DNA of 47,980 nucleotides from an uncultured Nitrososphaerales archaeon (GCA_964475215.1 CAYYVT010000171.1:1-47980); one strand, 5' to 3'; shown: positions 2,985-30,004, counted from the first letter of the stretch. The notes: generated by a model from the letters alone, not told the origin. A program made the numbers and translations.

Positions 2985-4790
2985 CTACTTCGTCCGCTCG
3001 ATGGAGAAGGCGAGGTTCCTCAGGCCATCCTCCAAGGCATCGAGCGCGGGGACGAGGTCGGACACCAAACCCACATCGCAATATCTGAAGGAGGAAGCCT
3101 CTGGGTCGCTGTTCACCGAAAGGACCAGCCGGGCCCGGCGCAGACCAATGTAGTGGTTCGCGGACCCCGAGACCCCGACCTCCACCATGAGCAATGGGTG
3201 GACGGACCTCCCCGTGAGGCCCACCTGGGCCTGGGGCGGAGCCCAGCCCGCGTCGACGACCTTCCGGGTGGCGGCCACGGCCGCACCCATCCCTGTGGCA
3301 TAGGATTCGAGGGATTGGAAGGCCTCCAGGGAGCCCACCCCGAACCCGCCGCAGATTATCACCTTTGCCCTGTCCAGATCCCCTCCCCGTGAGCCCATTC
3401 TGACAGTTCGAAGGACCAGCTTTGCGTCGGCAGAAGCAGAGGGCTTGGTTTCCAGGCTTCGCACAGATGGCTGTCCGGGCGCGAACGAAAGCAGGGGAAA
3501 GACGCCAGGGCGAACAGTGGCCATTCGCGGCGAGGTCTTGGAGATAACTTCGGCCATCACGCTTCCGCCGAAGGCGGGCTTGACCTGAATGAGGTCCCCT
3601 CTGCGGTGAAGGGAGATGTCCGTGGCGTCGCCCGTCAATCCCAGCCTGAGGGAGGCCGCCAACCGTCCGGCCACCTCCCTTCCTTTCACGGTGGAGGGTA
3701 TCAGGACGGCGAACGGCCTGTCGCGTTCAATCGCCTGGCGGAGGGCCATCGCGTCCACGAAGGCCGATGGAGTGCCCGAAGGGACGCTCAGCCGCAGCAC
3801 TTCTTCGGCTCCCGCCTTGGCGGAATCGGCCACCAGGTCCTCCACTACGTCGGGGGCGATGACCGCCACGGCCGTGAGGCCAAGGCCTCTGACCTTTCCC
3901 ATGACTTCTTGGGCGGTGCGGGCCTCCTGGGAACCCGCCATCACGACCACCCAGACGGGCTTGGGTTCGGTCGCCCTCGACATGTCGACCGCTTCGGAGG
4001 GGGCTTCGGCCAAGAGCCTGCCGACCTCCGCAAGACACTTGGATGCGGCCGACGGTAGGTCATTCCTCCCGTCGAAGATCACGGGCCTTCGCTGGTAGGA
4101 GGCATCGAAAAGCGACTTCACAAAGGTGGGTGAGCCCGAGGCGCCGAAGAGGCTCATGTCGGACGAAAGGGAGGATGCAGGCCAGCGCTCTACGGGCATC
4201 TGAACGGCCTTCACCCTAGCCTCCTCCGAAGGGATCCTCGGATGGTTGATCTTCTCGTTGACGCTGAGTACTGCAGGAGGCTCCACCTCGTAGGTCTCGG
4301 TCCCCTCTTCGAAGTCCCGGACGACCGTTATCGTAGAGCCGTTCACCTCGATGGACCGGGCGTTGGTGACCAAGGGTGCTTCAAGTAGCTGGGCGATCTC
4401 AGGTATCACTTGGGATGTCTCTGCGTCCACGCTCGACACACCACCAAGCACCATGTCGAACCCAAGGCGTCGGACCGCCATCGAGAGGGCCGTCGAGGTC
4501 GCCAGCGTGTCGGAGCCCGCGAAAGCTGGATCGGTCAAGAGGACGGCCCGGTCTGCGCCGGCAGCGAGGGTCGAGCGGAGGACCTCGTCCGCGGAGGGAG
4601 GGCCCATGCTGACTGTGACGACCTGACCTCCCTCTTTCTCCTTCATGATGACGCCAGCCTCCACCGCCCTTCGGTCGAAGGGGTTAATGGCGTTCTTAAC
4701 GCCCTCGCGAATCAGGGTGTTGGTCTCGGGGTTGAAGCGAAGCTGGGAGACATCTGGAACCATCTTGACGAGAACGACGATGCGCAGCAC
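2985..4790 (-). CDS. Fused electron transfer flavoprotein beta+alpha subunits (FixA-FixB fusion)
   Basis: N-half ETF-beta (VLVKMVPD, INPFDRRAVE, GSDTLATS); C-half ETF-alpha (KPAFGG, TVRPGVF, ATRKVVDAGW, QVGLTG, GVSGSANH). Confidence 0.92.
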   Translation of the reverse strand: MLRIVVLVKMVPDVSQLRFNPETNTLIREGVKNAINPFDRRAVEAGVIMKEKEGGQVVTVSMGPPSADEVLRSTLAAGADRAVLLTDPAFAGSDTLATSTALSMAVRRLGFDMVLGGVSSVDAETSQVIPEIAQLLEAPLVTNARSIEVNGSTITVVRDFEEGTETYEVEPPAVLSVNEKINHPRIPSEEARVKAVQMPVERWPASSLSSDMSLFGASGSPTFVKSLFDASYQRRPVIFDGRNDLPSAASKCLAEVGRLLAEAPSEAVDMSRATEPKPVWVVVMAGSQEARTAQEVMGKVRGLGLTAVAVIAPDVVEDLVADSAKAGAEEVLRLSVPSGTPSAFVDAMALRQAIERDRPFAVLIPSTVKGREVAGRLAASLRLGLTGDATDISLHRRGDLIQVKPAFGGSVMAEVISKTSPRMATVRPGVFPLLSFAPGQPSVRSLETKPSASADAKLVLRTVRMGSRGGDLDRAKVIICGGFGVGSLEAFQSLESYATGMGAAVAATRKVVDAGWAPPQAQVGLTGRSVHPLLMVEVGVSGSANHYIGLRRARLVLSVNSDPEASSFRYCDVGLVSDLVPALDALEDGLRNLAFSIERTK

Positions 4791-4903: not shown

Positions 4904-5623
4904 GTGCCCGAACCCGAATTGAGCGACCAAGGAGAACTGGGCTTGGAGCAAGACGAGACCAAGCGCAGGATGATGGTCGACCTCATCCCGTACATTGTGT
5001 CCGTCTACCTGAGGGCCCAGTCGGCGATTTCTCCGGCCGGCCTGCTTTCAAAGGCCCTTGAAAGCTCCGGGAACGCGAGCTCGGGAGGGCCGAGCCGCAG
5101 AGAGGAGCTCACCGCGGCGCTCAGGGGCGTAGAAGAGCTCAACCTAAGGCAGGAGGGGGACGGGTTCGTCTTCGACCTCGACAGGAAGATGATGCTGGAC
5201 ATCGTGAGGCTTCATGTCACCAAGGCCTACATTCACGAGGGGTCGCATGGGGCCGCATACGTGGTCGACCCACCGAGCTTTGGATATCCGCTGGACGCCG
5301 CGCTGAGGCTCCCGATGAGGAGCGTGTTCGTAAAGCTCCTGGATTCGGAAGTGACGACGGACGTCGAGGCCGACATTCTGGAGGTCGCGGTGAAGCTCTC
5401 TCCATCTCAGCTCTGGGTGTTTACGCTGGGAAACCCCAACGTAGACTCGAGGCTGAGCCCGCAGTTTCGCTCTGAAAACAGGGTCCTCTTCGGCCGGCTC
5501 AGGATCCTGGGCCTCAAGACGGTCCTTGACGAATACCTGGGAGGAGCCTACACTTTGGACGTAAAGAAGGGAGAGAAAGGCTACCAGGTGAAGGCCACGC
5601 CCGGGCGGTCAGCCCAGGCGTAA
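4904..5623 (+). CDS. Hypothetical protein
   Basis: 239-aa ORF with ordinary globular composition filling the gap between etfBA and the convergent protease gene; no family recognised. Confidence 0.65.
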   Translation: MPEPELSDQGELGLEQDETKRRMMVDLIPYIVSVYLRAQSAISPAGLLSKALESSGNASSGGPSRREELTAALRGVEELNLRQEGDGFVFDLDRKMMLDIVRLHVTKAYIHEGSHGAAYVVDPPSFGYPLDAALRLPMRSVFVKLLDSEVTTDVEADILEVAVKLSPSQLWVFTLGNPNVDSRLSPQFRSENRVLFGRLRILGLKTVLDEYLGGAYTLDVKKGEKGYQVKATPGRSAQA

Positions 5624-6037
5624 GATCCCCGCCTTGGGGTCTATCTCCATCTTGAACGACTTCAGGAAGGTCCTGCCGAGGACCATGTCGAACGGAGAAA
5701 GCGGGGATGTGTCGAACTCCGTGATCAGCGCGTCCACGTCCTTCACCGAAAGGTCACCCAAGGAGACCTCCTTCAGGGTGATCTGGATGCTGCGCTCCAT
5801 CCCCCTCATGTCTAGGACCATGGGCGCCCTATCGGGTCTGAACTCCATCCAACTGCCATGTGAAAGGGTGGCTTCGGGGTATCCCAGCTCTGAGGCGTCC
5901 TGTCTGCCCAGATAGCAGTAGTCGAAGTTGTAGTCCAAGAGGCAGCTCAGCTCCATTATGCGGGTGTTGGCTCCCTTCACCCTGCACCAGAGGATCATGG
6001 GGTCCTTGAGCGGGAACTCCAGCACTTCATTCACCAA
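5609..6037 (-). CDS. Retropepsin-like (clan AA) aspartic protease homologue, degenerate motif
   Basis: LLDYNFDY in place of hhD[TS]GA, plus A-ELG, V-LGDL-VKDV and FDMVLGRTFLKSFKMEID C-terminal signature. Confidence 0.75.
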   Translation of the reverse strand: MVNEVLEFPLKDPMILWCRVKGANTRIMELSCLLDYNFDYCYLGRQDASELGYPEATLSHGSWMEFRPDRAPMVLDMRGMERSIQITLKEVSLGDLSVKDVDALITEFDTSPLSPFDMVLGRTFLKSFKMEIDPKAGILRLG

Positions 6038-6437
6038 GGGAGACGGCCAGAGATGACATGTCTAGCTTCACCTTCGCCCGTGAAAGAAGCGATGCCCCCA
6101 GGACCACGTCGAAACCAGCCTCCTGGGGAAGGTCGTATGCCAGGAACTCCACGTTCCTGAAGACCTGGCCTCCCAGGCTGACTTCGTCGACCCTTATGAG
6201 CGGGGCGTCGAGATACCCCGCAAAGGTCGCCACGGTCATGAGGTTGGCCGGCCGAGTTATGAAGTCCGTTGATGGGTCCTGAATCGCTTCGCCATACCCC
6301 AGCGCGTAGGCGTCCACTTTGGGCATGATGCAATAGGAGGCTGCGGAGTCGACGAGGCCCTCATACTCCCTCACCTTGCCGTTCCTGCCCCTGAGCCTGG
6401 CGAACAGGATCGGCACGCCGCGAGTTCTGGGCTGCAT
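6027..6437 (-). CDS. Retropepsin-like (clan AA) aspartic protease
   Basis: LVDSAASY (variant of DSGAS), AYALG, VSLGGQVFRNVEF, FDVVLGASLL. Confidence 0.8.
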   Translation of the reverse strand: MQPRTRGVPILFARLRGRNGKVREYEGLVDSAASYCIMPKVDAYALGYGEAIQDPSTDFITRPANLMTVATFAGYLDAPLIRVDEVSLGGQVFRNVEFLAYDLPQEAGFDVVLGASLLSRAKVKLDMSSLAVSLGE

Positions 6438-6445
6438 GGAGGACC

Positions 6446-6676
6446 CTACATCAGCACCGTGTATCCCGCGTCGCCGCCATAGACTATGCAGATGTCGCCG
6501 TATTTCGTGAGCTTCATCCTGAGCCTGTACCTGTCAACGTCCTCGGCCACCACGGTTCCGGCCGTGGGCTGGCCGTTCTGGTCTCGTTTCGTGACGATCA
6601 TGGCCACCCACCTGTTGGGGTACTTCTCGTGGATGGCCTCGAGGGTCAGTTCCTCCTGGGTCGTCGAAGAGCTCAC
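6446..6676 (-). CDS. Small DUF5678-like protein
   Basis: GTG start at 6676 (VSSSTTQEELTLEAIHEKYPNRWVAM...G-VVAED); KYPNRWVA...G-VVA pattern; this family commonly precedes retropepsin-like genes. Confidence 0.65.
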   Translation of the reverse strand: MSSSTTQEELTLEAIHEKYPNRWVAMIVTKRDQNGQPTAGTVVAEDVDRYRLRMKLTKYGDICIVYGGDAGYTVLM

Positions 6677-6690
6677 TGGGTCGTCTCCGC

Positions 6691-7707
6691 CTAGGTCGCG
6701 CCGTTGAATGAGCGCAGGGCCTTCTTGACGGCCCCCTTCGCCAAGTCCACCCGGAACGCGTTCCCCGTGCCGTAGGTCAGGGGAGTCGCCCCGCTGAGCG
6801 CCATGTTGGCGGCGTCGCTGATCACGTCCTCGGTGAGCTGTTTGCCTGCCAGGTACGACTCGGCGCTTGGCGCCCTGTGGGGCTTGACGTCCACGCCTCC
6901 CAATACCACGCGGGCGCTGCTGACGGTACTGCCGTTGAAGGTCGCCGTGATGGCGGCGGAGGCGAGGGCGAAGTCCCACGTCCCCCTGTCGCGCACCTTG
7001 TAGTAGACGCTCTGGGTGTTGGCCGCGGGCGTGGGAACATGAACTTCGGTGAGTACCTCGTTGTACCCGACGGTGTTCTCCTTGACTATGCCGTCCTGCA
7101 CTGTGATTCCAGGGATAAGGTCGTCCATGCTGACTGTCCTAGAGCCTGAAGGACCCTGCACCGTCGCCTCGGCGTTCAGGGCGTAGAGGGCCGGAGCTAT
7201 GTCCCCGGCATGGACCGCGTAGCAGAGCCTGCCTCCGAACACGCTGTGGTAGAAGCGGTTATCGCCGATGGCGCCGTAGCAGATGCTGCCTCCGTTCCGC
7301 CAGCAGTCGTAGTCGTAGCGCAGGTACCAGCACCAGACCTCCTGAAGCAGGTCGCCGGCGACGGTGCCGACGTTCCTGATCTGAGGGGTGGCGATGGATC
7401 CGGCCGCCTGGGCCAATACGGCGAAGTATTGGTTGGTGTTCGCGTCGTTCTCTAAGGTGCTGATGTTGGTGGCACCGCCTATCCGCAGGCCGTCACTCTG
7501 GGTGAACGTGATGTAGTTCAGGCCCAGGTTGCTGATGTCTACCACGTAGTAGGGGATCTGGGTGGAGATGTTGTTCTTGATCCTCGAGATTATGTCGGAG
7601 CCGCCCGAGATGATCTTGGCGCTTCCTCCGGCACTCGTGAGGTGGCTGATGGCGTCGCTGACGGAAGTGGCCTGATAGTAGCCGAACTTCTGGACTTCGG
7701 TTCTCAA
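6691..7707 (-). CDS. Xanthine dehydrogenase-family FAD-binding subunit, PaoB/YagS type with [4Fe-4S] insert
   Basis: ISGGSD, ATPQIRNVGTVAGDL, four Cys in WCWYLRYDYDCWRNGGSICY...RLCYAVH, KVRDRGTWDFALAS; TTG start overlapping the upstream stop. Confidence 0.92.
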   Translation of the reverse strand: MRTEVQKFGYYQATSVSDAISHLTSAGGSAKIISGGSDIISRIKNNISTQIPYYVVDISNLGLNYITFTQSDGLRIGGATNISTLENDANTNQYFAVLAQAAGSIATPQIRNVGTVAGDLLQEVWCWYLRYDYDCWRNGGSICYGAIGDNRFYHSVFGGRLCYAVHAGDIAPALYALNAEATVQGPSGSRTVSMDDLIPGITVQDGIVKENTVGYNEVLTEVHVPTPAANTQSVYYKVRDRGTWDFALASAAITATFNGSTVSSARVVLGGVDVKPHRAPSAESYLAGKQLTEDVISDAANMALSGATPLTYGTGNAFRVDLAKGAVKKALRSFNGAT

Positions 7708-10064
7708 AACGCACCTGCCTCCTGGGCCTTGGCTATGGCATTCATGATGTCCTGTCGGGAGACCGGCAGGTGGTCGAACCTCTGGCCGCCTAGGGCGTTG
7801 CTCAGGGCGTTTACTATGGCCGGGCTGACGGCTATCAGGACGTTCTCGCCGATGCCCTTCGCCCCGAACGGTCCGATGGGGTCCACGTACTCGTCCCAGG
7901 TCGCGGTGACGGCGTCGGGCACCTCCATGATGGTGGGGACCCTGAAGTCGTGGAAGTTGGGGTTGATGTAGCTCCCGGTCGTCGGGTCCTGAAGGAGCTC
8001 CTGATAGAGGGTTTCTCCCATCCCCATGCCGTAGAAGCCCCCTCTGACCTGGCTTTCGGCGCCCTTGGCGAATATGACCTTGCCGATGTCGAGTCCGCTG
8101 ACGTAGTTGGTGATGTGGACGTCCCCAGTCTCGATGTCCACCTGGAGCTCGACCAGCTTCGCGCCGCCCACGCGCCAGGCGACGTTTGTCGGGACTGAGA
8201 ACACGCCGACGCCGGTGATCGGGGCGCTCAGAAGGGCCGCGGCGTCCTTGAAGCTGATGCTCAGGGTGCCGTCAGCGGAGACTATGTTGCCGTTCGAGAA
8301 GCTTAGGTTCGATGCCGTGGTCCCGAGCTTGGCCGCCACGATGGGGAACCATTGGCGCTTCAGGTCGGCTGCGGCCATCGAAAACGCCATTCCGGCGTTT
8401 CTGGTCGACTGGCTTCCTGCCGTGACGCTTGAGCTAGTGGTAAGGCTGGTGTCCGACTGGACGCAGGTGACGTTCGCCAGAGAAGTGAGACCCAGGTACT
8501 CGGCGGCCATTATCGGGAACGTGGTGTTGCCCCCCGCGCCGTGGTCCGTCAGCCCTGTGTAACAGACGACGGAGCCGTCGGTGTTGACCTGTATCTGCCC
8601 TGTGCTTGGCGGAATTATGCTCCCCTTCGCAGAGTTCTGGAGGGCGATGCCAACGCCCGTTCTGACCGTGCCGCTGACGGCGCTGGCCACTCCCCAACCC
8701 TGGAACTTCGAGCTCCAGCCGAAGGCGGTTACAGCGTTGTTGAAGGCTCCAGGCTCCCCAAATCCCGTGTATGGAAGCTTGCTTACGGGGTCGACGGCGT
8801 TGGCGCTCGTCCTCATGTTCTGTAGCCTGAACTGGACGGGATCGATCCCCAGCTTCTCGGCCATCATGTCGACGGCCACCTCCATGAAGAAGTGGGCCTG
8901 GCTCTCGCCAACGTCCCTCATGGGGCCTGCCTGGGCGAAGGCGTTGGTGTTCACCGAGGTGGAGGTCAGCTCAACGTTGGGGGTCATGTATGCGTTGTAG
9001 AAGTCGCTCAGCGAGTCCGAGCCGTTGGAACCGCCGTAGGCGCCCACGTTGACGTAGAACTGTCCCTTCATTGCGGTCATGGTGCCGTCCTTCGTCCCCC
9101 CGAGGGTCATGTACGCCTTTATGGGGAACTTGGCGCTGGTGTTGTTGAGGGCCTGGTCAAACCGCGTGGGGCCGTACTTCACGGCGGCCCCAACCTTCTG
9201 GGCCATGACGGCGGCGAGGATCATCTCCTCAGCAGCGCCGGACTTGTCGCCGAGGGCCATCCCGACAACCCCTCCCCCTTCGTTGCCCCCGAGGCCCGAC
9301 TTCACCGTCACCGTGTTCAGGGGGACGCGGAAGTAGTTCGCAAGAGTCGACTGGGCCGAGTGGACGTACTGGTTGCTGGCCCATATCGTGAGCGTGTTGT
9401 TCTTCCAGGAGGCGACGCAGGCGCGTGGCTCCATCTCAAAGTGTTGGTGGAGGGGGAAGTTGAGCGTCGTGGTGATGGTGGCATCGGCGCTCGCCAGGGC
9501 GGCATCCACGTCACCATACGATACGCTGAGTGTGGCGGGGACGGGGCCCGTCTCCGGGTTAAAGCCCGCGCCCGGGATGTTCCCGCCTGGCCAGATCTGG
9601 ACAGCGCCAGGCTGGCTCGCCTCCTCGGCATCAAGGACGTAGGGAAGGGGCTTGAATTCGACGTCGACCAGGCCTATGGCATCCTCCACCCCGTCGGTGG
9701 TTGAGGCCCCCACCACGGCTACCATCTGGCCGGGGTAGTAGGTCTGGCCCTCTGGCAGCGGGAGGTGAGGCCTCGCGCCGCTGATCATGGAAAACGCCGC
9801 CAAGTCCTGGGCTGTCAGGACCACATATCCGGCGGCCAGGGCCTTGGTGGCATCGATCTTTACGATCTGGGCGGAAGGATAAGGACAGGTTATCTTGCCC
9901 ATGTAGACAAAGCTCGTCTCGCCGACGTGAGAGGGGTTTATGTCATAGGCGTACACCGCCGAGCCGGTTATCTTGCGCGTTATATCCCTCCTGTTCACAG
10001 ATGTGTTGCCGACGAGGTTGTAGGTCGGGGTTGAAGAGGATGAAGAGGACGATGATGAGGACAT
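7704..10064 (-). CDS. Xanthine dehydrogenase-family molybdopterin-binding large subunit (PaoC/YagR-like)
   Basis: KITGSAVYAYD, HFEMEPRA, DMMAEKLGIDPVQFRLQN, GPFGAKGIGE (catalytic Glu); true start taken as ATG at 10064, just after the small-subunit stop. Confidence 0.92.
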   Translation of the reverse strand: MSSSSSSSSSSTPTYNLVGNTSVNRRDITRKITGSAVYAYDINPSHVGETSFVYMGKITCPYPSAQIVKIDATKALAAGYVVLTAQDLAAFSMISGARPHLPLPEGQTYYPGQMVAVVGASTTDGVEDAIGLVDVEFKPLPYVLDAEEASQPGAVQIWPGGNIPGAGFNPETGPVPATLSVSYGDVDAALASADATITTTLNFPLHQHFEMEPRACVASWKNNTLTIWASNQYVHSAQSTLANYFRVPLNTVTVKSGLGGNEGGGVVGMALGDKSGAAEEMILAAVMAQKVGAAVKYGPTRFDQALNNTSAKFPIKAYMTLGGTKDGTMTAMKGQFYVNVGAYGGSNGSDSLSDFYNAYMTPNVELTSTSVNTNAFAQAGPMRDVGESQAHFFMEVAVDMMAEKLGIDPVQFRLQNMRTSANAVDPVSKLPYTGFGEPGAFNNAVTAFGWSSKFQGWGVASAVSGTVRTGVGIALQNSAKGSIIPPSTGQIQVNTDGSVVCYTGLTDHGAGGNTTFPIMAAEYLGLTSLANVTCVQSDTSLTTSSSVTAGSQSTRNAGMAFSMAAADLKRQWFPIVAAKLGTTASNLSFSNGNIVSADGTLSISFKDAAALLSAPITGVGVFSVPTNVAWRVGGAKLVELQVDIETGDVHITNYVSGLDIGKVIFAKGAESQVRGGFYGMGMGETLYQELLQDPTTGSYINPNFHDFRVPTIMEVPDAVTATWDEYVDPIGPFGAKGIGENVLIAVSPAIVNALSNALGGQRFDHLPVSRQDIMNAIAKAQEAGAF

Positions 10065-10066
10065 TT

Positions 10067-10792
10067 CTATGGGGAACCTCCTAGGGCCTGAGCGGCCTGT
10101 TGAATGGCGGAAATGATGTTCAGGTAGGTGCCGCAGCGGCATAGGTTGCCGCTCATTCCGGCCTTTATTTCGTCCACGGTCGGGTTGGGGTTGCTCTTCA
10201 AAAGAGCTGTGGCCGCCATAACCTGGCCGGCCTGACAATAGCCGCACTGGCTGGCGTCGTTCGGCACCCAGGCGGTCTGAACTGCCGCTAGGACAGGGTC
10301 CGGGGTCTTGGACGTGATGCCTCCCTCAACGGTGAGGATCTGATGACCCTGGGCCCTGATGGCCAGTAAGGTGCAGGAGTAGTACGGCTTGCCGTCGATC
10401 AGGACAGTGCAGCCGCCACACTCCATCCTGTTGCATGGCCGCTTGGTCCCAATCAGGCCAAGCTGCTCCCGGAGAACGTTGACGAGCATGTCCCTTGGCT
10501 GGACCTGGGCCGCCATGGTGGTCCCGTTGACACTCAGATTGATGGTCTGAATGGCAAAGAGGCTGGCATCGAACGCCGCCGTGCTGCTGACGCTTGGGCT
10601 GGTGGCCCCCATGCCGGAGATTTGCTGCGGCCGAAGACCCACCACAGCCGCGGCAAGTGCCGTCGCGGCTACGCTACCTTTGATGAAGGTCCTTCGGCTC
10701 AGCCTTACGCCATGTGAACTCTCGAGGGCAAGCTTCAGCCTGTCCTGAGAGGAGCTAAAATCGGTCCCCGAACTCTTGCTCTCGTTAGACGT
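10067..10792 (-). CDS. Xanthine dehydrogenase-family 2x[2Fe-2S] subunit with twin-arginine signal (PaoA/YagT-like); start codon non-canonical or uncertain
   Basis: GTKRPCNRMECGGCTV...SC, QCGYC, GNLCRC; frame stays open upstream of the listed ORF to 10798 and encodes LSRRTFIKGSVAATALAAAVVG; no in-frame ATG/GTG/TTG before RR, ACG at 10792 proposed. Confidence 0.85.
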   Translation of the reverse strand, partial: TSNESKSSGTDFSSSQDRLKLALESSHGVRLSRRTFIKGSVAATALAAAVVGLRPQQISGMGATSPSVSSTAAFDASLFAIQTINLSVNGTTMAAQVQPRDMLVNVLREQLGLIGTKRPCNRMECGGCTVLIDGKPYYSCTLLAIRAQGHQILTVEGGITSKTPDPVLAAVQTAWVPNDASQCGYCQAGQVMAATALLKSNPNPTVDEIKAGMSGNLCRCGTYLNIISAIQQAAQALGGSP

Positions 10793-10798
10793 GACACA

Positions 10799-10990
10799 CT
10801 ACCGAATCCCCAGAATCTGCATGGCATATATTTTACCGTTTTTAACGATTCCAGCCAAGGTAATCACGGACGGTTACGTTTGCTGATACGAAACGCAGGG
10901 AACTATCCGAAAGGCCTACAAAAAGGAGAAAAATCGAAAAAACGGAATAATGGTTAAAGGTCTGTCAATTTACTCCTCCGAGTTCGATTA
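10799..10990. promoter_or_regulatory. Divergent AT-rich promoter region between the Mo-hydroxylase operon and the cytochrome b gene
   Basis: TATA-like AAATATAT on - strand (about 10826-10833) and GGTTAAAG on + strand (about 10952-10959); related 10-mers next to both. Confidence 0.6.
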
Positions 10991-11836
10991 ATGATTCCAT
11001 TCCAGGTCGCGCCGGAGAGATTGGATGAAACGATCGCCCTCTACATCGTCTTGGTATTTGTCGCCGGATACGCAGTCCACTGGTTCAGGAGGGCATTCAG
11101 GGAACCTTCACCCACAGGTCCCACCCCGAGCGTCAGCGTCCCCGGCGACAGGGTAAAGTACTATGACATAGTCGAGCGCCTCTTCCACTGGACGGACTTC
11201 ATCGTAATGGGAATGATGATGCTAACCGGAATCGCCATCTTCTTCCCGGGATCCCTGAACTTCGCGCTGGCGCCCTTCGGCGTCCAGGGGACAGCCGGCG
11301 AGATAGACCTTCACCTTACTTTTGTGTGGGCTCTGTTGGGCCTGATTGTGATACATGTCGTCTGGGACACGGCCGTGGCGAGGGGCTTCTGGAACATCTG
11401 GCCGGGCGTCAAGGACATACGGGATGCGGCCAAGAGGGCCAAGAACTTCGTGGGGTGGTCCGATGAATACCCAAGGATGGCCAAATACGACGCGTTCATG
11501 AAGACGTTCCACTGGGGCCTGACGCTGTCCCTGATCGTCCTGGGGATCACGGGGATCTACTTCTGGAATCCCTACGGCATCATGCCCAACCTTGGCTACG
11601 CCACGGAGAACCTGTTCAGAGTTCTGCACGATATATTCGCGTTCCTACTCGTCGGGCTGGTCATCGGCCACATCTACTTCGCCGTGATACCAGAGAACTG
11701 GCCCATCCTGAAGGCCATGATTACAGGGACGATGTCCAAGGACTTCTACATGAAGCACTACGACCCGGCACGGTGGAAGGCCAAGCAGTCTACAGGACTC
11801 CTGAGGAAGGAGTTCGCCGACGGCGGTGACGAGTAG
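10991..11836 (+). CDS. Di-heme cytochrome b (FdnI/HyaC, formate dehydrogenase gamma / Ni-hydrogenase cytochrome b family)
   Basis: ERLFHW, DLHL, KYDAFMK, RVLHD, IGHIYFA, LKAMITG; about 5 hydrophobic helices with the four conserved His. Confidence 0.85.
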   Translation: MIPFQVAPERLDETIALYIVLVFVAGYAVHWFRRAFREPSPTGPTPSVSVPGDRVKYYDIVERLFHWTDFIVMGMMMLTGIAIFFPGSLNFALAPFGVQGTAGEIDLHLTFVWALLGLIVIHVVWDTAVARGFWNIWPGVKDIRDAAKRAKNFVGWSDEYPRMAKYDAFMKTFHWGLTLSLIVLGITGIYFWNPYGIMPNLGYATENLFRVLHDIFAFLLVGLVIGHIYFAVIPENWPILKAMITGTMSKDFYMKHYDPARWKAKQSTGLLRKEFADGGDE

Positions 11837-12361
11837 TTGCAGGAGAATGAACATGTAAAGGCGCATGGCGAGGAGCAGGCCGATAGGGCGCTGTCCTCGT
11901 CGCACCTCCTCACGATGAAGGGCAAGGCCGAGATGGGTTTTGTTGGGGGCCTGGTAGCAAGCATAGTCGCCGCGTTCGTGGCGATTGCCTCTGATGGGGT
12001 AGGCCTTCTTATCTCCCCCTGGTTCGTGACTCTAGGAAGCGTCCTGGGCGTCGCTGGGCTTCCCGCCTATGTTGGGCTGGTGGGAGTGGTCGCATTCCTG
12101 ACCATTGGGGTGGTCTGGGGCCTCATCTTCGCCTTCCTCTTCAGCAAGTACTCTGTCACCAAGGGTTTGGCGTTCAGCGGCATCCAGATCCTGCTGACGG
12201 TGGCCCTTCTGATGGTCGTCTCCACCCCTCAGGTGGGGGGGACCCTTCTGACTCTTCCAATAGTCAACTCCCTGATGCTGGTGATCGGCCTGGCCTTCAC
12301 CTACATAGCGTTCGGAGTCGTGATAGGGCTGGTCGGAAGGAAGTACACCGGATTGCCGTAG
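11837..12361 (+). CDS. Hypothetical integral membrane protein (about 4 TM)
   Basis: Four long hydrophobic segments; directly follows the cytochrome b stop. Confidence 0.7.
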   Translation: MQENEHVKAHGEEQADRALSSSHLLTMKGKAEMGFVGGLVASIVAAFVAIASDGVGLLISPWFVTLGSVLGVAGLPAYVGLVGVVAFLTIGVVWGLIFAFLFSKYSVTKGLAFSGIQILLTVALLMVVSTPQVGGTLLTLPIVNSLMLVIGLAFTYIAFGVVIGLVGRKYTGLP

Positions 12362-25715: not shown

Positions 25716-27266
25716 CTAGTTGATCGAAACGGCCACGGACTGCCAGCCACTGGCCCCACCGGGGAAGGGGGCTGCGGCCGACTGGGTCTGCAGGTTGCCT
25801 TCGCCGTCGGTGGCCCTAACCGATAGGGTGTAGCTGCCCCTGGCGGAGGGGCTCCAGTCGAAGGACCATAGGACCCATGAATTGACCGAAGGCGGGGCCA
25901 CGAGCGAAGCGGACGACCACGTGCTCCCATTGTCTGTGCTGACCTCCACCTTGGATATGCCTCGCTCGCCCGCGAAGGCTACGCCCAAGATGGTGATGGG
26001 GGCGCCAAAGGCCACGGAAGTGGGGCTGTAGATTCCGAACTTGTCGGAAAGGGCGTCGTCTCCCAGGTTGACTATGGTTGATTCGGTTTCATATTGGGCC
26101 TCGTTTATCCAGCCCTGTCGTTGCCAGAAGCCTTCGTAGGTCTGGTCGGCCAAGGAGATTTCGGTGATCCACTTGGGGTTCATCATGCCATAGTAGCCGG
26201 GGACGAGGGCGCGTAATGGGTAGCCATGGACCTGGGGCAGGGGCGCACCGTTCATCTGATATGCAAGTATGGTGCCGTCCTCCATGGCCTTGCTGAGCGG
26301 GATGCCCACGTCGTACCCGTCGGCGCACTTGAACACCACGTAGGTCGCGCTGGAGTTGACTCCCGCCGAGGAAAGCAAGTCCTTGAGCCTGACGCCCTTC
26401 CACTGGGCGTTGCTCATCAGGTCCCCGCCCACGACGTTGCTGACGCACTCCAAGGTGTTGTACTGTTCAGCCGAAGGGAGGGCCGTGATGTCGTCGTAGC
26501 TTAGGGTGAGGGGGGTGTCCACAAGGCCGCCCACTTTCAGCGACCAAGATGAGGACTGGATTGAGGGAGGGAATATGTTGATGTCGACTCGGTAGAAGTT
26601 GTCGTTTGAAGTCACCTCGTTGGCGAAGAAGTTGGAGGGGTCGCTCGATCGGGCGTTGGTCTGCTCCAGGAAACCCAAGCCGTAAAGGGCAAGCAGCGCC
26701 ACGGCCACAGCCCCGGCGCCGGCAGCGATAAGAAGACGCCTCCCGCTGTCAACCGGCTTGAGGTCCGAGGGGACGATCTCCCTCATGGTTGGAAGGTATC
26801 GGGTTTCAAGGGATACCAACGCAAACCCGAAGACCAGTTGAGGAAAGATCAGCTCGAAAGCGAGGGTGGGTAGCGAAATGGGCTGGGAGTTGATCTGAGT
26901 TATTGAAAGGAAGAGGCTCGAGAGCACGAGCGTGATCGCGTAGGAGATACCAGCGGCGACGAGCGCCTTCACTGAGGACCGGCTTCGGTCTGTCTCCACG
27001 ATGCGGAGGAAGAACAATGAAAGGAGGCCATAGAGCGCCAGGTTGACAGCGATCGCCACGGTGTAGGTCGTGTATTTCGCCAGTGAACCGAGGGTGTCGA
27101 CGGCATTCGATTCGATCTGGCCGGGCACCACGGAGAAGAAGGCCTGGGATGCAAGCTCAGGCAGAAAGGATCCCCCAGCGAAGAGCCTGAGTAGGTAGGC
27201 CGCCACGAGGGCCAAGGCTCCCGCTGCCACGCCAAGGCCGAAGACTCTGCGCGAAGCGCTAGCCAT
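25716..27266 (-). CDS. Sulfite oxidase-family molybdopterin oxidoreductase with N-terminal polytopic membrane domain
   Basis: TLECVSN (Mo-ligand Cys), NAQWKGVRL, MNGAPLPQVHGYPLRALVPGYYG, KWITEI, C-terminal Ig-like dimerisation domain; internal SGRRLL plus hydrophobic helix. Confidence 0.92.
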   Translation of the reverse strand: MASASRRVFGLGVAAGALALVAAYLLRLFAGGSFLPELASQAFFSVVPGQIESNAVDTLGSLAKYTTYTVAIAVNLALYGLLSLFFLRIVETDRSRSSVKALVAAGISYAITLVLSSLFLSITQINSQPISLPTLAFELIFPQLVFGFALVSLETRYLPTMREIVPSDLKPVDSGRRLLIAAGAGAVAVALLALYGLGFLEQTNARSSDPSNFFANEVTSNDNFYRVDINIFPPSIQSSSWSLKVGGLVDTPLTLSYDDITALPSAEQYNTLECVSNVVGGDLMSNAQWKGVRLKDLLSSAGVNSSATYVVFKCADGYDVGIPLSKAMEDGTILAYQMNGAPLPQVHGYPLRALVPGYYGMMNPKWITEISLADQTYEGFWQRQGWINEAQYETESTIVNLGDDALSDKFGIYSPTSVAFGAPITILGVAFAGERGISKVEVSTDNGSTWSSASLVAPPSVNSWVLWSFDWSPSARGSYTLSVRATDGEGNLQTQSAAAPFPGGASGWQSVAVSIN

Positions 27267-27485: not shown

Positions 27486-29504
27486 TCATCTGAGAAGCGC
27501 GAGCTTCTTTCTGATCTCATCTGCGGTGCGCGAAGCCATCGCCATTATCGTGATCATCGGGTTGGCGCCAAGCGAAGTGGGGAAGACCGACGCGTCGCCG
27601 ACGAATAAGTTCTTCACGGCGTAAAGCTCCCCGGTGGGACTAGTCGGCCCGTCCTCCGGCTGGGAGCTCATCCTACATGTGCCCATAAGGTGGGCGCTGT
27701 ACAACATCACCCGATTGTACTGGACGCCTCGCCTGCGGACTTCGGCATCGAACTTATCGAGCTCAGCACGGCTGAACTTCCCTCGCTCCGCCGTGGCGAC
27801 GACGGGCTCGGAGTGCAACGTCCAGAGCTCCGAGGCACCGGACGCGGCCAGTATCCTGCCTGCCTCCGAAAGACCGCTGGCGAAGTTCTCCTTATCCTTT
27901 GCATCGAGGGAGTAGGTGACCTTGGGTGCTCCGTGCTTGTCCGTCTCAACCTTGCCGCTCCCCCACTCTCGAAGTAGGACGATGGTGGCGGTCGACCTGG
28001 CGAACCTTTCTCGCATGAACCTCTTATGGTCGAGGCCGTCCCTCCATGGTATGCTCAGGGCGAAGAGGCCGGGATGTGCCGGCGCCGCTTCGATCCAGAA
28101 GCCATGGCCTGTCCCGTCGAGGTCGAGAAACTTTCTCACCGCCACGGTCTGGGGAGGGCCCTTCCAAGCGTTCACCCCGTTTTCGAAGTAGCCGGATATG
28201 TCTGTGGTAGGGTGAAGGCGAAGATACCTCCCGATGCCCCTGTCCGTAATCCCCGAGTTCAGAAGCAGCGCGGGCGTCTTGATGGAGCCACAGGCTGCCA
28301 CGACGATCTTGGCGGTGACCGTCACCCTGCTGGACCCACGTTCGCTTCGAACGGCCTCGACCCCAACGGCTCTCCCGTCCTTGACCAATATCCGCTCCGC
28401 CTTCGTATCGAAGAGGAACCGAGTCCCGTTCCCGTAGGCTGTGGGGAGGTAGTTCATTATCGTTGACTGCTTGCAGCTGTAGGCACACCCATAGCTGCAA
28501 AAGGAGCACCTTTCTTCACAGCCCACGACGTTGCGAGAGATCACCTCGAAATCGGCTCCTTCTTTGTAGCCAAGGGCCGAGCAGCCCCTCCAGAGCGCAT
28601 CGTTGTTCGGGTTTCTCTGGCTCTGCTCCTGGTTGACTTTGAGCGTCGACCAGACCGTTCCGATCTTTGACTCGAAGGCGGGCGACGTGAGGCCCGCGAT
28701 GCCGTAGACCCGCTCCCATTCGTTGAGCACAAACGGCGGCGGCCTCATGCAGGTGCACCAGTTGACGACCGTTCCGCCCCCAGCGCCCCTGCCTGCCAGG
28801 AGCTGAAACGAAAGGTCGCTGGTCGCGGCGGTCCCATATTCGTCGAAGAGCTTGTTCATCATGTTGAACTCCCTCTGGTCAAAGGTGTCGGCTGTCTCGT
28901 AACCTCCCGCCTCCAGCACGATCACGTCGGCGCCGCTTGCACTGAGCTCTGCCGCGATCACGCTTCCGCCAGCGCCGGACCCGACCACGCAGACGTCGCA
29001 ATCGTAGCGGGAATCCCCCTCAGGCTTGAGGGGGACCACCGCCAGGCCGGAAGGGTGGCCAAGGGGGCTGTGAATTTCAGGGCCCGGGTAACCTAGATCA
29101 CGCCAAGTGGGGTTGCCCTCGGGGCCGACGGGAAGGGCGTAGTACAGGAAGCAGGTGAGCCGCTTTAGGGCCTGAAAGGCGGTGCGCTTTGTGCCAATTC
29201 CGCTATCTCGCCATCCCTTGAGGTATGCGGTGCGGGAGGGGAGATCGAGCGCAGAGAACTTCGACGGTCTCCCTGTGAGCACAAGGTTGTAGGGCCTGCT
29301 GTCGAGGATGGAGAGCAGCCTGTAGAACTGGTCACGCAGGGATGGCTCCAACTTTGACTCTATGATGCCCGCCAGGACGACGTCAACGCCCAGCGAGCTC
29401 GCTGAGAGGCCTTCCATGGCTCCCCCGACAGAGCCTCCGCCTGTGGGGACGATGGCGTCGCATACCAATGTGAGGGTCTTCCGCTGAGCCTTCGAAAGGG
29501 GCAA
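27486..29504 (-). CDS. GMC oxidoreductase, long-chain fatty alcohol oxidase-like
   Basis: VVGSGAGG, LEAGG, GGGTVVNW, C-ERC-FC-YGC, SAHLMGTCRM, DASVFPTSLGANPMITI; start placed at in-frame TTG 29504. Confidence 0.88.
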   Translation of the reverse strand: MPLSKAQRKTLTLVCDAIVPTGGGSVGGAMEGLSASSLGVDVVLAGIIESKLEPSLRDQFYRLLSILDSRPYNLVLTGRPSKFSALDLPSRTAYLKGWRDSGIGTKRTAFQALKRLTCFLYYALPVGPEGNPTWRDLGYPGPEIHSPLGHPSGLAVVPLKPEGDSRYDCDVCVVGSGAGGSVIAAELSASGADVIVLEAGGYETADTFDQREFNMMNKLFDEYGTAATSDLSFQLLAGRGAGGGTVVNWCTCMRPPPFVLNEWERVYGIAGLTSPAFESKIGTVWSTLKVNQEQSQRNPNNDALWRGCSALGYKEGADFEVISRNVVGCEERCSFCSYGCAYSCKQSTIMNYLPTAYGNGTRFLFDTKAERILVKDGRAVGVEAVRSERGSSRVTVTAKIVVAACGSIKTPALLLNSGITDRGIGRYLRLHPTTDISGYFENGVNAWKGPPQTVAVRKFLDLDGTGHGFWIEAAPAHPGLFALSIPWRDGLDHKRFMRERFARSTATIVLLREWGSGKVETDKHGAPKVTYSLDAKDKENFASGLSEAGRILAASGASELWTLHSEPVVATAERGKFSRAELDKFDAEVRRRGVQYNRVMLYSAHLMGTCRMSSQPEDGPTSPTGELYAVKNLFVGDASVFPTSLGANPMITIMAMASRTADEIRKKLALLR

Positions 29505-29632
29505 GTGTCCCAGATTATCGAGTCTTCGAAATCGACTTAAATCCTGTTCCGAACAACCGCTGCCTCCCCCGAGGAACCGATTGGCCAGCAAAGCATTTTG
29601 GCGGCCCCGATGACGCGTTTCCGGGAGGCAAG

Positions 29633-30004
29633 ATGTCGCCCTCACACATCAAGGTCAAGCGGGCGTACGACCCTAGCTCTGAATCCGATGGTGAAAGGCT
29701 CCTGGTCGACAGGTATTGGCCTCGAGGAATGACACGGGAACGCCTCGAGATTGCGCGCTGGGCGAGGGAGGTGGCGCCCAGCAGGTCTCTCTGCGAGTGG
29801 TTCGGCCATGATCCGGCTAGGTGGGAGCAGTTCAAGGAGAGGTATTTCGATGAGCTGGACCACAAGGCCGAAGCCTGGCGGCCCTTGCTTGATGATGCCT
29901 CCAACGGCAGAGTAACCCTAGTGTTCGGAGCCAAGGACGTCAACCACAACCAGGCTGTGGCCCTAAAGGAGTACCTGGACTCCAAGGCCTCTTCACGTCG
30001 CTAA
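29633..30004 (+). CDS. DUF488 / YeaO-family protein
   Basis: IKVKRAYD, RLLVDRYWPRG, APSRSL-EWFGH, HNQAVALKEYL. Confidence 0.9.
   Translation: MSPSHIKVKRAYDPSSESDGERLLVDRYWPRGMTRERLEIARWAREVAPSRSLCEWFGHDPARWEQFKERYFDELDHKAEAWRPLLDDASNGRVTLVFGAKDVNHNQAVALKEYLDSKASSRR

Follow-up and report, generated by a model that had tools for sequence, protein, structure and literature searches.

Background

In FdnGHI (Fdn-N; PDB 1KQF) and in HyaC-type systems, a module exported by the twin-arginine translocation (Tat) pathway sits on a four-helix cytochrome b with two haems, and Fdn-N follows the logic of a redox loop. The partner of the cytochrome is an enzyme with bis-molybdopterin guanine dinucleotide (bis-MGD) in FdnGHI and a hydrogenase in the HyaC type. 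Within the xanthine oxidase family, AldFGH of acetic acid bacteria faces the periplasm and uses a haem subunit to hand electrons on to quinone in the membrane; this subunit is a multi-haem cytochrome c, and AldFGH has neither an FdnI-type cytochrome b nor a subunit with flavin adenine dinucleotide (FAD) and [4Fe-4S]. An extra [4Fe-4S] cluster is carried by the beta subunit of 4-hydroxybenzoyl-CoA reductase. The same extra cluster is described in a preprint for the FAD subunit of PaoABC of Escherichia coli (YagTSR, PDB 5G5G). PaoABC, which has been studied more than any other exported enzyme of this family, is an enzyme of three subunits with a Tat signal on the 2Fe-2S subunit and a [4Fe-4S] insert in the FAD subunit, whose terminal electron acceptor was reported in 2014 as not identified (PMC3958847). 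Here we describe a locus in 47,980 nucleotides of DNA from an uncultured Nitrososphaerales archaeon (GCA_964475215.1, CAYYVT010000171.1:1-47980; called the window, to which all coordinates refer as a whole), in which genes for a PaoABC-like molybdenum (Mo) hydroxylase lie back to back with genes for an FdnI-type cytochrome b and a small membrane protein. We consider it probable that the locus encodes an extracytoplasmic respiratory dehydrogenase wired through its own dedicated cytochrome b; the wiring, already put forward in an initial annotation of this DNA, is supported by gene neighbourhood, by joint presence and absence of the genes, and by a model of the complex.

The likeness to PaoABC extends to the layout. 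In E. coli the gene of the DUF1440 membrane protein YagU is divergent from paoA (L057, E. coli K-12 302991-303605), and this arrangement is mirrored here, although YagU is unrelated to the membrane protein of the window. Unlike the window locus, the E. coli pao operon has no cytochrome b alongside, and unlike PaoABC the window operon has no XdhC/PaoD gene; two XdhC-type genes are found elsewhere in the genome. All four haem-ligand histidines of FdnI align with the cytochrome b, which has in addition one more helix at its N-terminus and two more invariant histidines. Its partner belongs to the xanthine oxidase family instead of being a bis-MGD enzyme or a hydrogenase, and there is no counterpart of the FdnH-like four-cluster subunit and anchor helix of FdnGHI. 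The novelty lies in joining two modules that were each known before, seen here in an archaeal version that brings its own accessory genes. No description of an exported xanthine-oxidase-family enzyme paired with such a cytochrome b was found in the openly readable literature searched; the text of a 2026 review (PMC13653126) contains neither 'cytochrome b' nor 'quinone', and that of a paper on Gagatemarchaeaceae (PMC10640624) contains none of 'xanthine', 'aldehyde' and 'molybd'.

Gene organisation and protein families

The enzyme is encoded on the minus strand by the genes for a small subunit with two [2Fe-2S] sites (10067-10702, start probably at CTG 10700-10702), a catalytic Mo subunit of the presumed molybdopterin cytosine dinucleotide (MCD) type (7704-10064, ATG start at 10064; 786 amino acids with a poly-Ser N-terminus) and a FAD subunit with a [4Fe-4S] insert (6691-7707, TTG start at 7707; 338 amino acids). 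The TTG start of the FAD subunit overlaps the stop of the Mo subunit, and the three genes are translationally coupled. On the plus strand, the cytochrome b gene (10991-11836) is divergent from the small-subunit gene at a distance of 288 bases, and the gene for the 174-residue membrane protein (11837-12361) begins on the base right after its stop. These gene calls agree with the initial annotation, both in the position of the five genes and in their divergent arrangement.

The small subunit matched the Pfam domains Fer2 and Fer2_2 (93.6 bits for the latter), and in the orthologue alignment Cys90, 95, 98, 153, 156, 188 and 190 are invariant and Cys110 nearly so. The Mo subunit matched PF01315 (40.3 bits), PF02738 (165.5) and PF20256 (160.0), each above its cut-off, and its best PDB matches were 7dqx_A (6.9e-51) and PaoC (5g5g_C, 1.1e-49). 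The Glu of its GIGE motif aligns with PaoC Glu692 and is kept in the window and in 20 of 20 aligned orthologues; we take the Glu of this GxGE motif to be the catalytic glutamate of oxidising enzymes. PaoC Arg440 is not conserved in the alignment. The FAD subunit matched PF00941 and PF03450, and the PF00941 domain is interrupted by an insert of about 50 residues with four cysteines (Cys126, 135, 143 and 162), which do not vary among 23 aligned sequences and match the positions of the cluster cysteines in 5y6q_B, the medium subunit of an aldehyde oxidase. An a/b-hammerhead domain, two domains binding the molybdenum cofactor, the GxGE motif, two [2Fe-2S] sites and a FAD domain are the features of the xanthine oxidase family, and together with the four-Cys insert they bear out the earlier assignment of 2Fe-2S, Mo and [4Fe-4S]-FAD subunits and mark the enzyme as PaoABC-like.

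The cytochrome b reached 81.8 bits with PF01292 (cut-off 30.1) and has five helices including the extra N-terminal one. Its only relative in PDB is FdnI (1kqf_C), found at 4.6e-10 with the single sequence and at 5.1e-17 with a profile. His66, 108, 213 and 227 align with the four haem-ligand histidines of FdnI, are invariant in 31 sequences and are likely to be the haem ligands; the FdnI-type cytochrome with two haems claimed earlier was confirmed in this way. His227 aligns with FdnI His169, presumably the residue tied to quinone reduction at the cytoplasmic haem. The three inner loops contain 23 Lys and Arg residues in total, the three outer loops 2. The NCBIfam model of formate dehydrogenase gamma subunits gave 48 bits against a cut-off of 116, and the cut-off of the hydrogenase cytochrome b equivalog was likewise not reached. 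Two further histidines, His122 (IHVVWD) and His174 (FHWG), are invariant in the 31 relatives and absent from FdnI. Each sits at a helix end on the cytoplasmic side, and a role in a third haem site or in a quinone site is conceivable.

The membrane protein follows the cytochrome b in Nitrososphaerota loci. It has four to five predicted helices, where four had been counted before, and reached no Pfam cut-off; a weak likeness to DUF6789 was seen in 6 of 12 family members (best E-value 1.8e-5, below cut-off). Kinship with YagU/DUF1440 was rejected at an hhalign probability of 6%.

Linkage of the cytochrome b to the enzyme genes

Scanning one genome per species for the pattern gave 35 cytochrome b loci, whose fetched flanks were searched for enzyme genes. 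In 23 of these loci the cytochrome b has such genes alongside. Among the 15 loci whose cytochrome b is at least 48% identical to that of the window, 13 carry the three enzyme genes; these 15 come from genomes labelled Nitrososphaerota or archaeon and from one metagenome-assembled genome labelled Bathyarchaeota. All ten loci at 25-31% identity (six from Halobacteria, four from Acidobacteriota/Gemmatimonadota) carry them too, and none was found in the nine loci at 34-39% or in the single locus with a weak partial match. Neighbourhood conservation, which the initial annotation had suggested as a check, was thereby seen both in the close group and in the haloarchaeal and bacterial one. The two close loci without enzyme genes are L031, a contig of 6.8 kb with a gene for a MobA-like nucleotidyltransferase instead, and L035, in which the cytochrome match is split between frames.

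Gene order varies among the 13 positive close loci. The enzyme may be encoded divergently and next to the cytochrome b, 5 kb upstream of it or 2.7 kb downstream, or the cytochrome b may be flanked by two paralogous operons. The four bacterial loci (L051-L054) have the order small subunit, Mo subunit, FAD subunit and cytochrome b on a single strand. Hydrogenase or formate dehydrogenase genes, whose presence beside the cytochrome b orthologues had been named as an argument against the pairing, were not seen in the loci scanned against Pfam, which are a part of the 35.

Metagenome contigs were mostly short. With a cytochrome b of at least 48% identity, 19 of 48 contigs contained enzyme genes; the other 29 mostly extend less than 2.5 kb per side, and only in L073, L080 and L084 does one flank reach 3 kb or more. 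The fractions were 0/25 at 33-40% identity and 3/6 at 28-31%.

On a tree of the cytochrome b, from which L035 and L056 were left out, the linked state needs 3 changes, and none of 500 shuffles gave a number as low. The haloarchaeal and bacterial sequences form a supported clade in which all are linked, and the sequences of copper-handling neighbourhoods (see below) form one long-branched clade within the Nitrososphaerota set.

The distribution within the genus agrees with this. The window's genome (G000) encodes one such cytochrome b, and was compared with four others from its genus. G001 and G003 contain both the cytochrome b and the Mo orthologue (87% and 79% identical). In G002 (95% complete) and G004 (86% complete), where the best Mo matches were 31% and 35% identical, respectively, neither gene was found. 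As G002 and G004 keep other paralogues of the enzyme, the cytochrome b goes with this particular Mo orthologue and not with exported paralogues in general.

Model of the complex

A joint model was built of the cytochrome b with the FAD and small subunits, each chain being supplied with an alignment. Three runs scored 0.70, 0.71 and 0.70, and the best of 3 controls scored 0.00; in the benchmark, 116 of 157 solved complexes and 2 of 215 mismatched pairs attained the mark used. The predicted local distance difference test (pLDDT) value of the partners is 77 or higher, and 60% or more of the contacts are common to the runs. Residues 134-163, 199-208 and 308-312 of the FAD subunit touch residues 7-10, 83-86, 100-109 and 190-207 of the cytochrome b, and no confident contacts between the small subunit and the cytochrome b were listed. 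Residues 134-163 surround the cluster cysteines. The contacting residues of the cytochrome b flank His108 and His213. Judged by hydropathy and charge, they lie in or at the edge of loops poor in Lys and Arg, and can be placed on the outer face because these loops hold 2 Lys and Arg in total against 23 in the others. The model thus predicts that the [4Fe-4S] loop docks on the outer face of the cytochrome b near the ligands of the outer haem. To our knowledge, no complex of these two families has been solved, so a pass owed to a memorised structure seems unlikely. Modelling of the complex had been suggested in the initial annotation, and for these three proteins its outcome is in favour of the pairing.

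Twin-arginine signal, start codon and leader

The N-terminus of the small subunit reads as a twin-arginine signal, LSRRTFIKGSVAATALAAAVVGL, followed by a linker rich in Ser and Thr. The motif LSRRTFIK precedes a hydrophobic stretch of 18 residues, and the match to the Pfam family TAT_signal (21.0 bits) is narrowly below the cut-off of 22.7. Most cytochrome-linked loci with a readable N-terminus preserve the motif with two arginines (RR) in their small subunit; L028 and L030 have a KR variant. In Caldarchaeales (MVKRGEGLSRRDFIK), haloarchaea and bacteria, ATG starts are found from a few to about 45 residues ahead of the motif. The signal noticed earlier on the 2Fe-2S subunit is therefore conserved across lineages, and a TatC gene is present in the window's genome.

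The start codon of the small subunit is less plain. The frame is open upstream to a TAG stop at 10799-10801 and reads GVRLSRRTFIKGSVAATALAAAVVGL, with a textbook twin-arginine motif, and in both G000 and G001 there is no ATG, GTG or TTG in frame between this stop and the RR motif. This counts for a different explanation, that the signal is no longer translated in this genus, that the small subunit starts at GTG 10645 and that the enzyme is cytoplasmic or inactive. We hold this to be very unlikely. Over the 19 codons from the CTG to the first GTG, the codons that differ between G000 and G001 are 8 synonymous to 1 non-synonymous, and those between G000 and G003 are 8 to 5; this pattern indicates purifying selection on the signal region. 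Directly ahead of SRR stands CTG in G000 and G001, which are independent assemblies, and TTG in G003. The low charge of the exported paralogues is retained in all three subunits (see below). Since the signal codons evolve as coding sequence and the leader upstream does not, the small subunit is likely to start at CTG 10700-10702. The region is thus read as translated, a point on which the initial annotation had made its reading depend, though from a non-canonical start codon.

A leader (10703-10835, minus strand) with a promoter-like TATA box TAAAATATA (10827-10835) was delimited in the alignment of three genomes. Its 32 codons upstream of the start gave 5:6 and 5:5 synonymous to non-synonymous differences, that is no synonymous excess, and the nucleotide difference of 12/96 is lower than in the part coding for the signal. 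The stretch of about 100 nucleotides before the small subunit looks like a conserved untranslated leader. Read-through from an in-frame ATG at 10820-10822 across the TAG was considered and rejected: the mini-frame of 7 codons has 0 synonymous against 3 and 2 non-synonymous differences, and the 32 codons past the TAG have no synonymous excess. A search of the leader against Rfam returned only snoR125 (E-value 0.77). The fold predicted from three close sequences has 40 pairs with 2 compensatory changes, which is too few for a claim of structure; in it, the C/T of the start CTG/TTG pairs with the G/A of the upstream TAG/TAA, a change on both sides.

Composition and paralogues in the genome

Charged residues (D+E+K+R) make up 13.6, 15.7 and 11.8% of the three enzyme subunits, against 19.8-28.4% in 9 neighbouring proteins. 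S+T+N amounts to about 20-22% against 11-16% in the same nine. The poverty in charge ascribed earlier to the Mo and FAD subunits was thus recovered. The abundance of N-x-S/T sequons is a different matter: the Mo subunit, noted earlier as carrying many, has 8 of them, but shuffled sequences have 6.5 on average and 625 of 2000 shuffles reach 8, so that an enrichment beyond the content of N, S and T was rejected. An STT3/AglB gene is present in the genome, and N-glycosylation of the exported subunits is possible.

G000 has 11 paralogues of the Mo subunit, of which eight have 11.9-13.6% charged residues and three have 21.5-23.8%. Six of the eight low-charge paralogues (C22, C61, C64, C121, C141 and C171) come with a small subunit that shows an RR signal (..VSRRNF..) together with a hydrophobic helix and an extended linker rich in Thr. 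The small subunit on C43 has a weak TAT_signal match below the Pfam cut-off, and no small subunit was found on the contig C119. Eight FAD subunits of G000 combine the four-Cys insert with low charge, one of them on C63, a contig without a Mo subunit. In the three operons of normal charge, signal and insert are both missing. Charged residues amount to 20.7-23.1% in the orthologues of Caldarchaeales, haloarchaea and bacteria. The low-charge bias appears to be tied to export in this lineage, because most paralogues with low charge have a signal and those with normal charge do not, and it is not intrinsic to the enzyme, given the values in the distant orthologues. A reasonable reading is that low charge is an acid adaptation of exposed proteins; window DNA was found in peat metagenomes. 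Genomes of this genus have 11-15 PF02738 matches each; in the other searched genera of the order the number is 3-8.

Proposed mechanism and alternative explanations

In the mechanism that we propose, the three-subunit Mo hydroxylase would be assembled in the cytoplasm and carried out by the Tat system on the signal of its small subunit, which may remain as a membrane anchor. Outside the cell the enzyme would oxidise an aldehyde or an aromatic heterocycle, and electrons would pass from Mo through the two [2Fe-2S] clusters and FAD to [4Fe-4S]. With the [4Fe-4S] loop resting on the outer loops of the cytochrome b, they would continue to the outer haem (His108/His213) and the inner haem (His66/His227). 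Quinone would then be reduced on the cytoplasmic side, and the electrons would finally reach the haem-copper oxidase encoded in the genome, where a COX1 gene is present. Of the redox loop put forward in the initial annotation, the conserved pairing with the cytochrome b is an observation; export, anchoring, the direction of electron flow, quinone reduction, the proton-motive gain of the loop and the class of substrate are what we infer.

A number of observations weigh against this reading. Quinone binding is deduced solely from likeness to FdnI, and by this analogy reduction at the cytoplasmic haem, the quinone site and the gain from the loop are plausible. The complex was modelled with three chains and custom alignments, unlike the calibration of the tool. 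Four loci with long flanks (L035, L073, L080 and L084) lack enzyme genes, and the related cytochrome b clade at 33-40% identity lacks them throughout, in 0/9 genome and 0/25 metagenome loci. In the scanned loci of this sister clade at 34-39% identity (L037 and L039-L044, from soil and groundwater Nitrososphaerales), the neighbours are copper P-type ATPases, cupredoxins and regulators with a TRASH domain, and the clade appears to have a copper-linked role. The nearest relative of the cytochrome b in G005, a genome of another genus of the same family (L018:8615-10084), is 35% identical and is fused in a frame of 490 amino acids to a C-terminal Rieske [2Fe-2S] domain. G002 and G004 hold 7-10 other paralogues of the enzyme without this cytochrome b, so exported enzymes of this kind can dispose of their electrons otherwise. 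In G000 itself, no cytochrome b was found near seven other paralogues of the exported type in the 8 contigs scanned (L138-L145), and one of these unlinked paralogues has a plastocyanin-like gene upstream instead. Finally, no subunit reaches the cut-off of an NCBIfam equivalog: the PaoA model gave 141.3 bits against 322 and the PaoC model 265.4 against 1180.

Part of these observations would fit an enzyme that is exported but passes its electrons to O2 or to a cupredoxin, either soluble or anchored, with some other purpose for the cytochrome b and the membrane protein. The seven unlinked paralogues, the plastocyanin-like gene and the copper-handling neighbourhoods of the sister cytochromes point that way, as does E. 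coli PaoABC, whose acceptor is reported as unidentified and whose reaction with O2 as slow (PMC3958847). We nevertheless think this fairly unlikely, since the linkage is kept across three phyla in several gene orders, the cytochrome b and the Mo orthologue are present or absent together in the genus, and the complex scores 0.70 against 0.00 with the cluster loop at the interface. In the sister clade itself, a DUF1775 (YcnI-like) gene follows the cytochrome b in L039, L043 and L044.

The same complex could also run in reverse, with quinol feeding the cytochrome b, electrons passing to [4Fe-4S] and FAD, and a substrate outside the cell being reduced. 4-Hydroxybenzoyl-CoA reductase uses the same extra cluster reductively, and its beta subunit HcrB (1rm6_B) is matched by the FAD subunit at 5.7e-29; TIGR03195 is the best NCBIfam model for this subunit (163 bits, below cut-off), and neither linkage nor the complex model gives a direction. 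On the other hand, the closest solved FAD subunit is that of an aldehyde oxidase (5y6q_B, 2e-34; PaoB follows at 6.1e-30), the catalytic Glu of oxidising enzymes is kept, most characterised members of the family are hydroxylases, and quinol is a weak reductant for such chemistry. The reverse direction strikes us as improbable, and oxidation coupled to quinone reduction through the cytochrome b remains the preferred reading. Because no equivalog cut-off is reached, the substrate cannot be named from family models; we would place it among aldehydes or aromatic heterocycles.

If the preferred reading is right, the extra [4Fe-4S] cluster would acquire a role, and the xanthine oxidase family would join formate dehydrogenase, hydrogenase and others as outward-facing builders of redox loops. 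The reading also points to a respiratory use of external organic compounds by peat and soil archaea, for whose energy metabolism genomes are the only source. A wider proposal, which we put forward tentatively and with less confidence than the reading of the window locus, is that PaoABC-like enzymes with a [4Fe-4S] flavoprotein are the catalytic heads of an unrecognised respiratory complex present in both archaea and bacteria, an extracytoplasmic Mo hydroxylase:quinone oxidoreductase whose membrane subunit would be a dedicated FdnI-type cytochrome b docked directly on the [4Fe-4S] loop. In that case the extra cluster would be the exit port for electrons, the missing acceptor of this type of enzyme would be a membrane cytochrome that was lost or replaced in E. 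coli, and abundant Nitrososphaerota of acid peat and soil that do not oxidise ammonia could gain energy from plant or humus aldehydes or heterocycles outside the cell. Cultured strains of Halobellus (H. rufus, L046; H. captivus, L047; H. clavatus, L055) and Halobaculum (sp. D14, L049) carry the module, which makes the idea testable at the bench.

A hint of transcription in peat

Contigs at least 99% identical to the window were found in three peat RNA libraries from three studies and cover the genes of the cytochrome b and the membrane protein; in two libraries several parts of the enzyme genes are covered as well. One contig spans 10574-10731, over the signal and the proposed start, and another spans the junction of the cytochrome b and membrane-protein genes. 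This is a hint that the locus is transcribed in peat, DNA carry-over being possible and the contigs giving neither strand nor transcript ends. Stretches without such contigs (e.g. 9648-10135 in X3) carry no weight.

Accessory and neighbouring genes

The bacterial loci L051-L054 share with the archaeal locus a Tat-exported enzyme and an FdnI-like cytochrome b. The archaeal form differs in being divergent instead of co-linear, in having the DUF6789-like membrane protein in place of a small soluble helical protein, and in the addition of a protein of about 76 amino acids, two retropepsin-like genes, low charge and a non-canonical start. The soluble protein has about 140 amino acids (EEAYEFFLAYAAQGL..SSQLVDNLNANIHLRALLTD), belongs to no family and follows the cytochrome b in the bacterial loci (L051:9739-10161, L052:9606-10061, L054:9686-10114 and L053 at about 4170-4570) and in Halobellus (L047:10961-11422). 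Genes for a MobA-like nucleotidyltransferase lie near the cytochrome b in L031 and in the haloarchaeal loci L047 and L048; a neighbour of this cytidylyltransferase type is a hint of an MCD cofactor.

The gene for the 76-residue protein (6446-6676, minus strand, GTG start at 6676) follows the FAD gene in every Nitrososphaerota genome locus with a long enough flank and in metagenome loci as well, and its product had no match in Pfam or NCBIfam. Two retropepsin-like proteins are encoded after it on the same strand. The first (6027-6437, 136 amino acids; PF13650, 5e-8) has DSA in place of D-T/S-G and is conserved with the operon in genome and metagenome loci. The second (5609-6037, 142 amino acids; PF13975 and PF13650 at about 2e-3, below cut-off) is 31% identical to the first, is also conserved with the operon, and no catalytic Asp motif was seen in it. 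Together, the three proteins may form a set for maturation or for binding of the signal.

Three further redox genes lie on the minus strand of the window. A molybdoenzyme of the sulfite oxidase family (25719-27266; PF00174 and Mo-co_dimer) has the N-terminus MASASRRVFGL.. with hydrophobic helices and 13.6% D+E+K+R, and since it has the same low-charge composition it is likely to be another outward-facing Mo enzyme. At 27489-29645 a gluconate-2-dehydrogenase subunit-3 domain is fused to a GMC oxidoreductase in a protein of 719 amino acids. The third gene (2985-4790) encodes an electron-transfer flavoprotein (ETF) as a single frame of 601 amino acids, in which two stretches belong to the ETF domain and one region is the FAD-binding domain of ETF_alpha.

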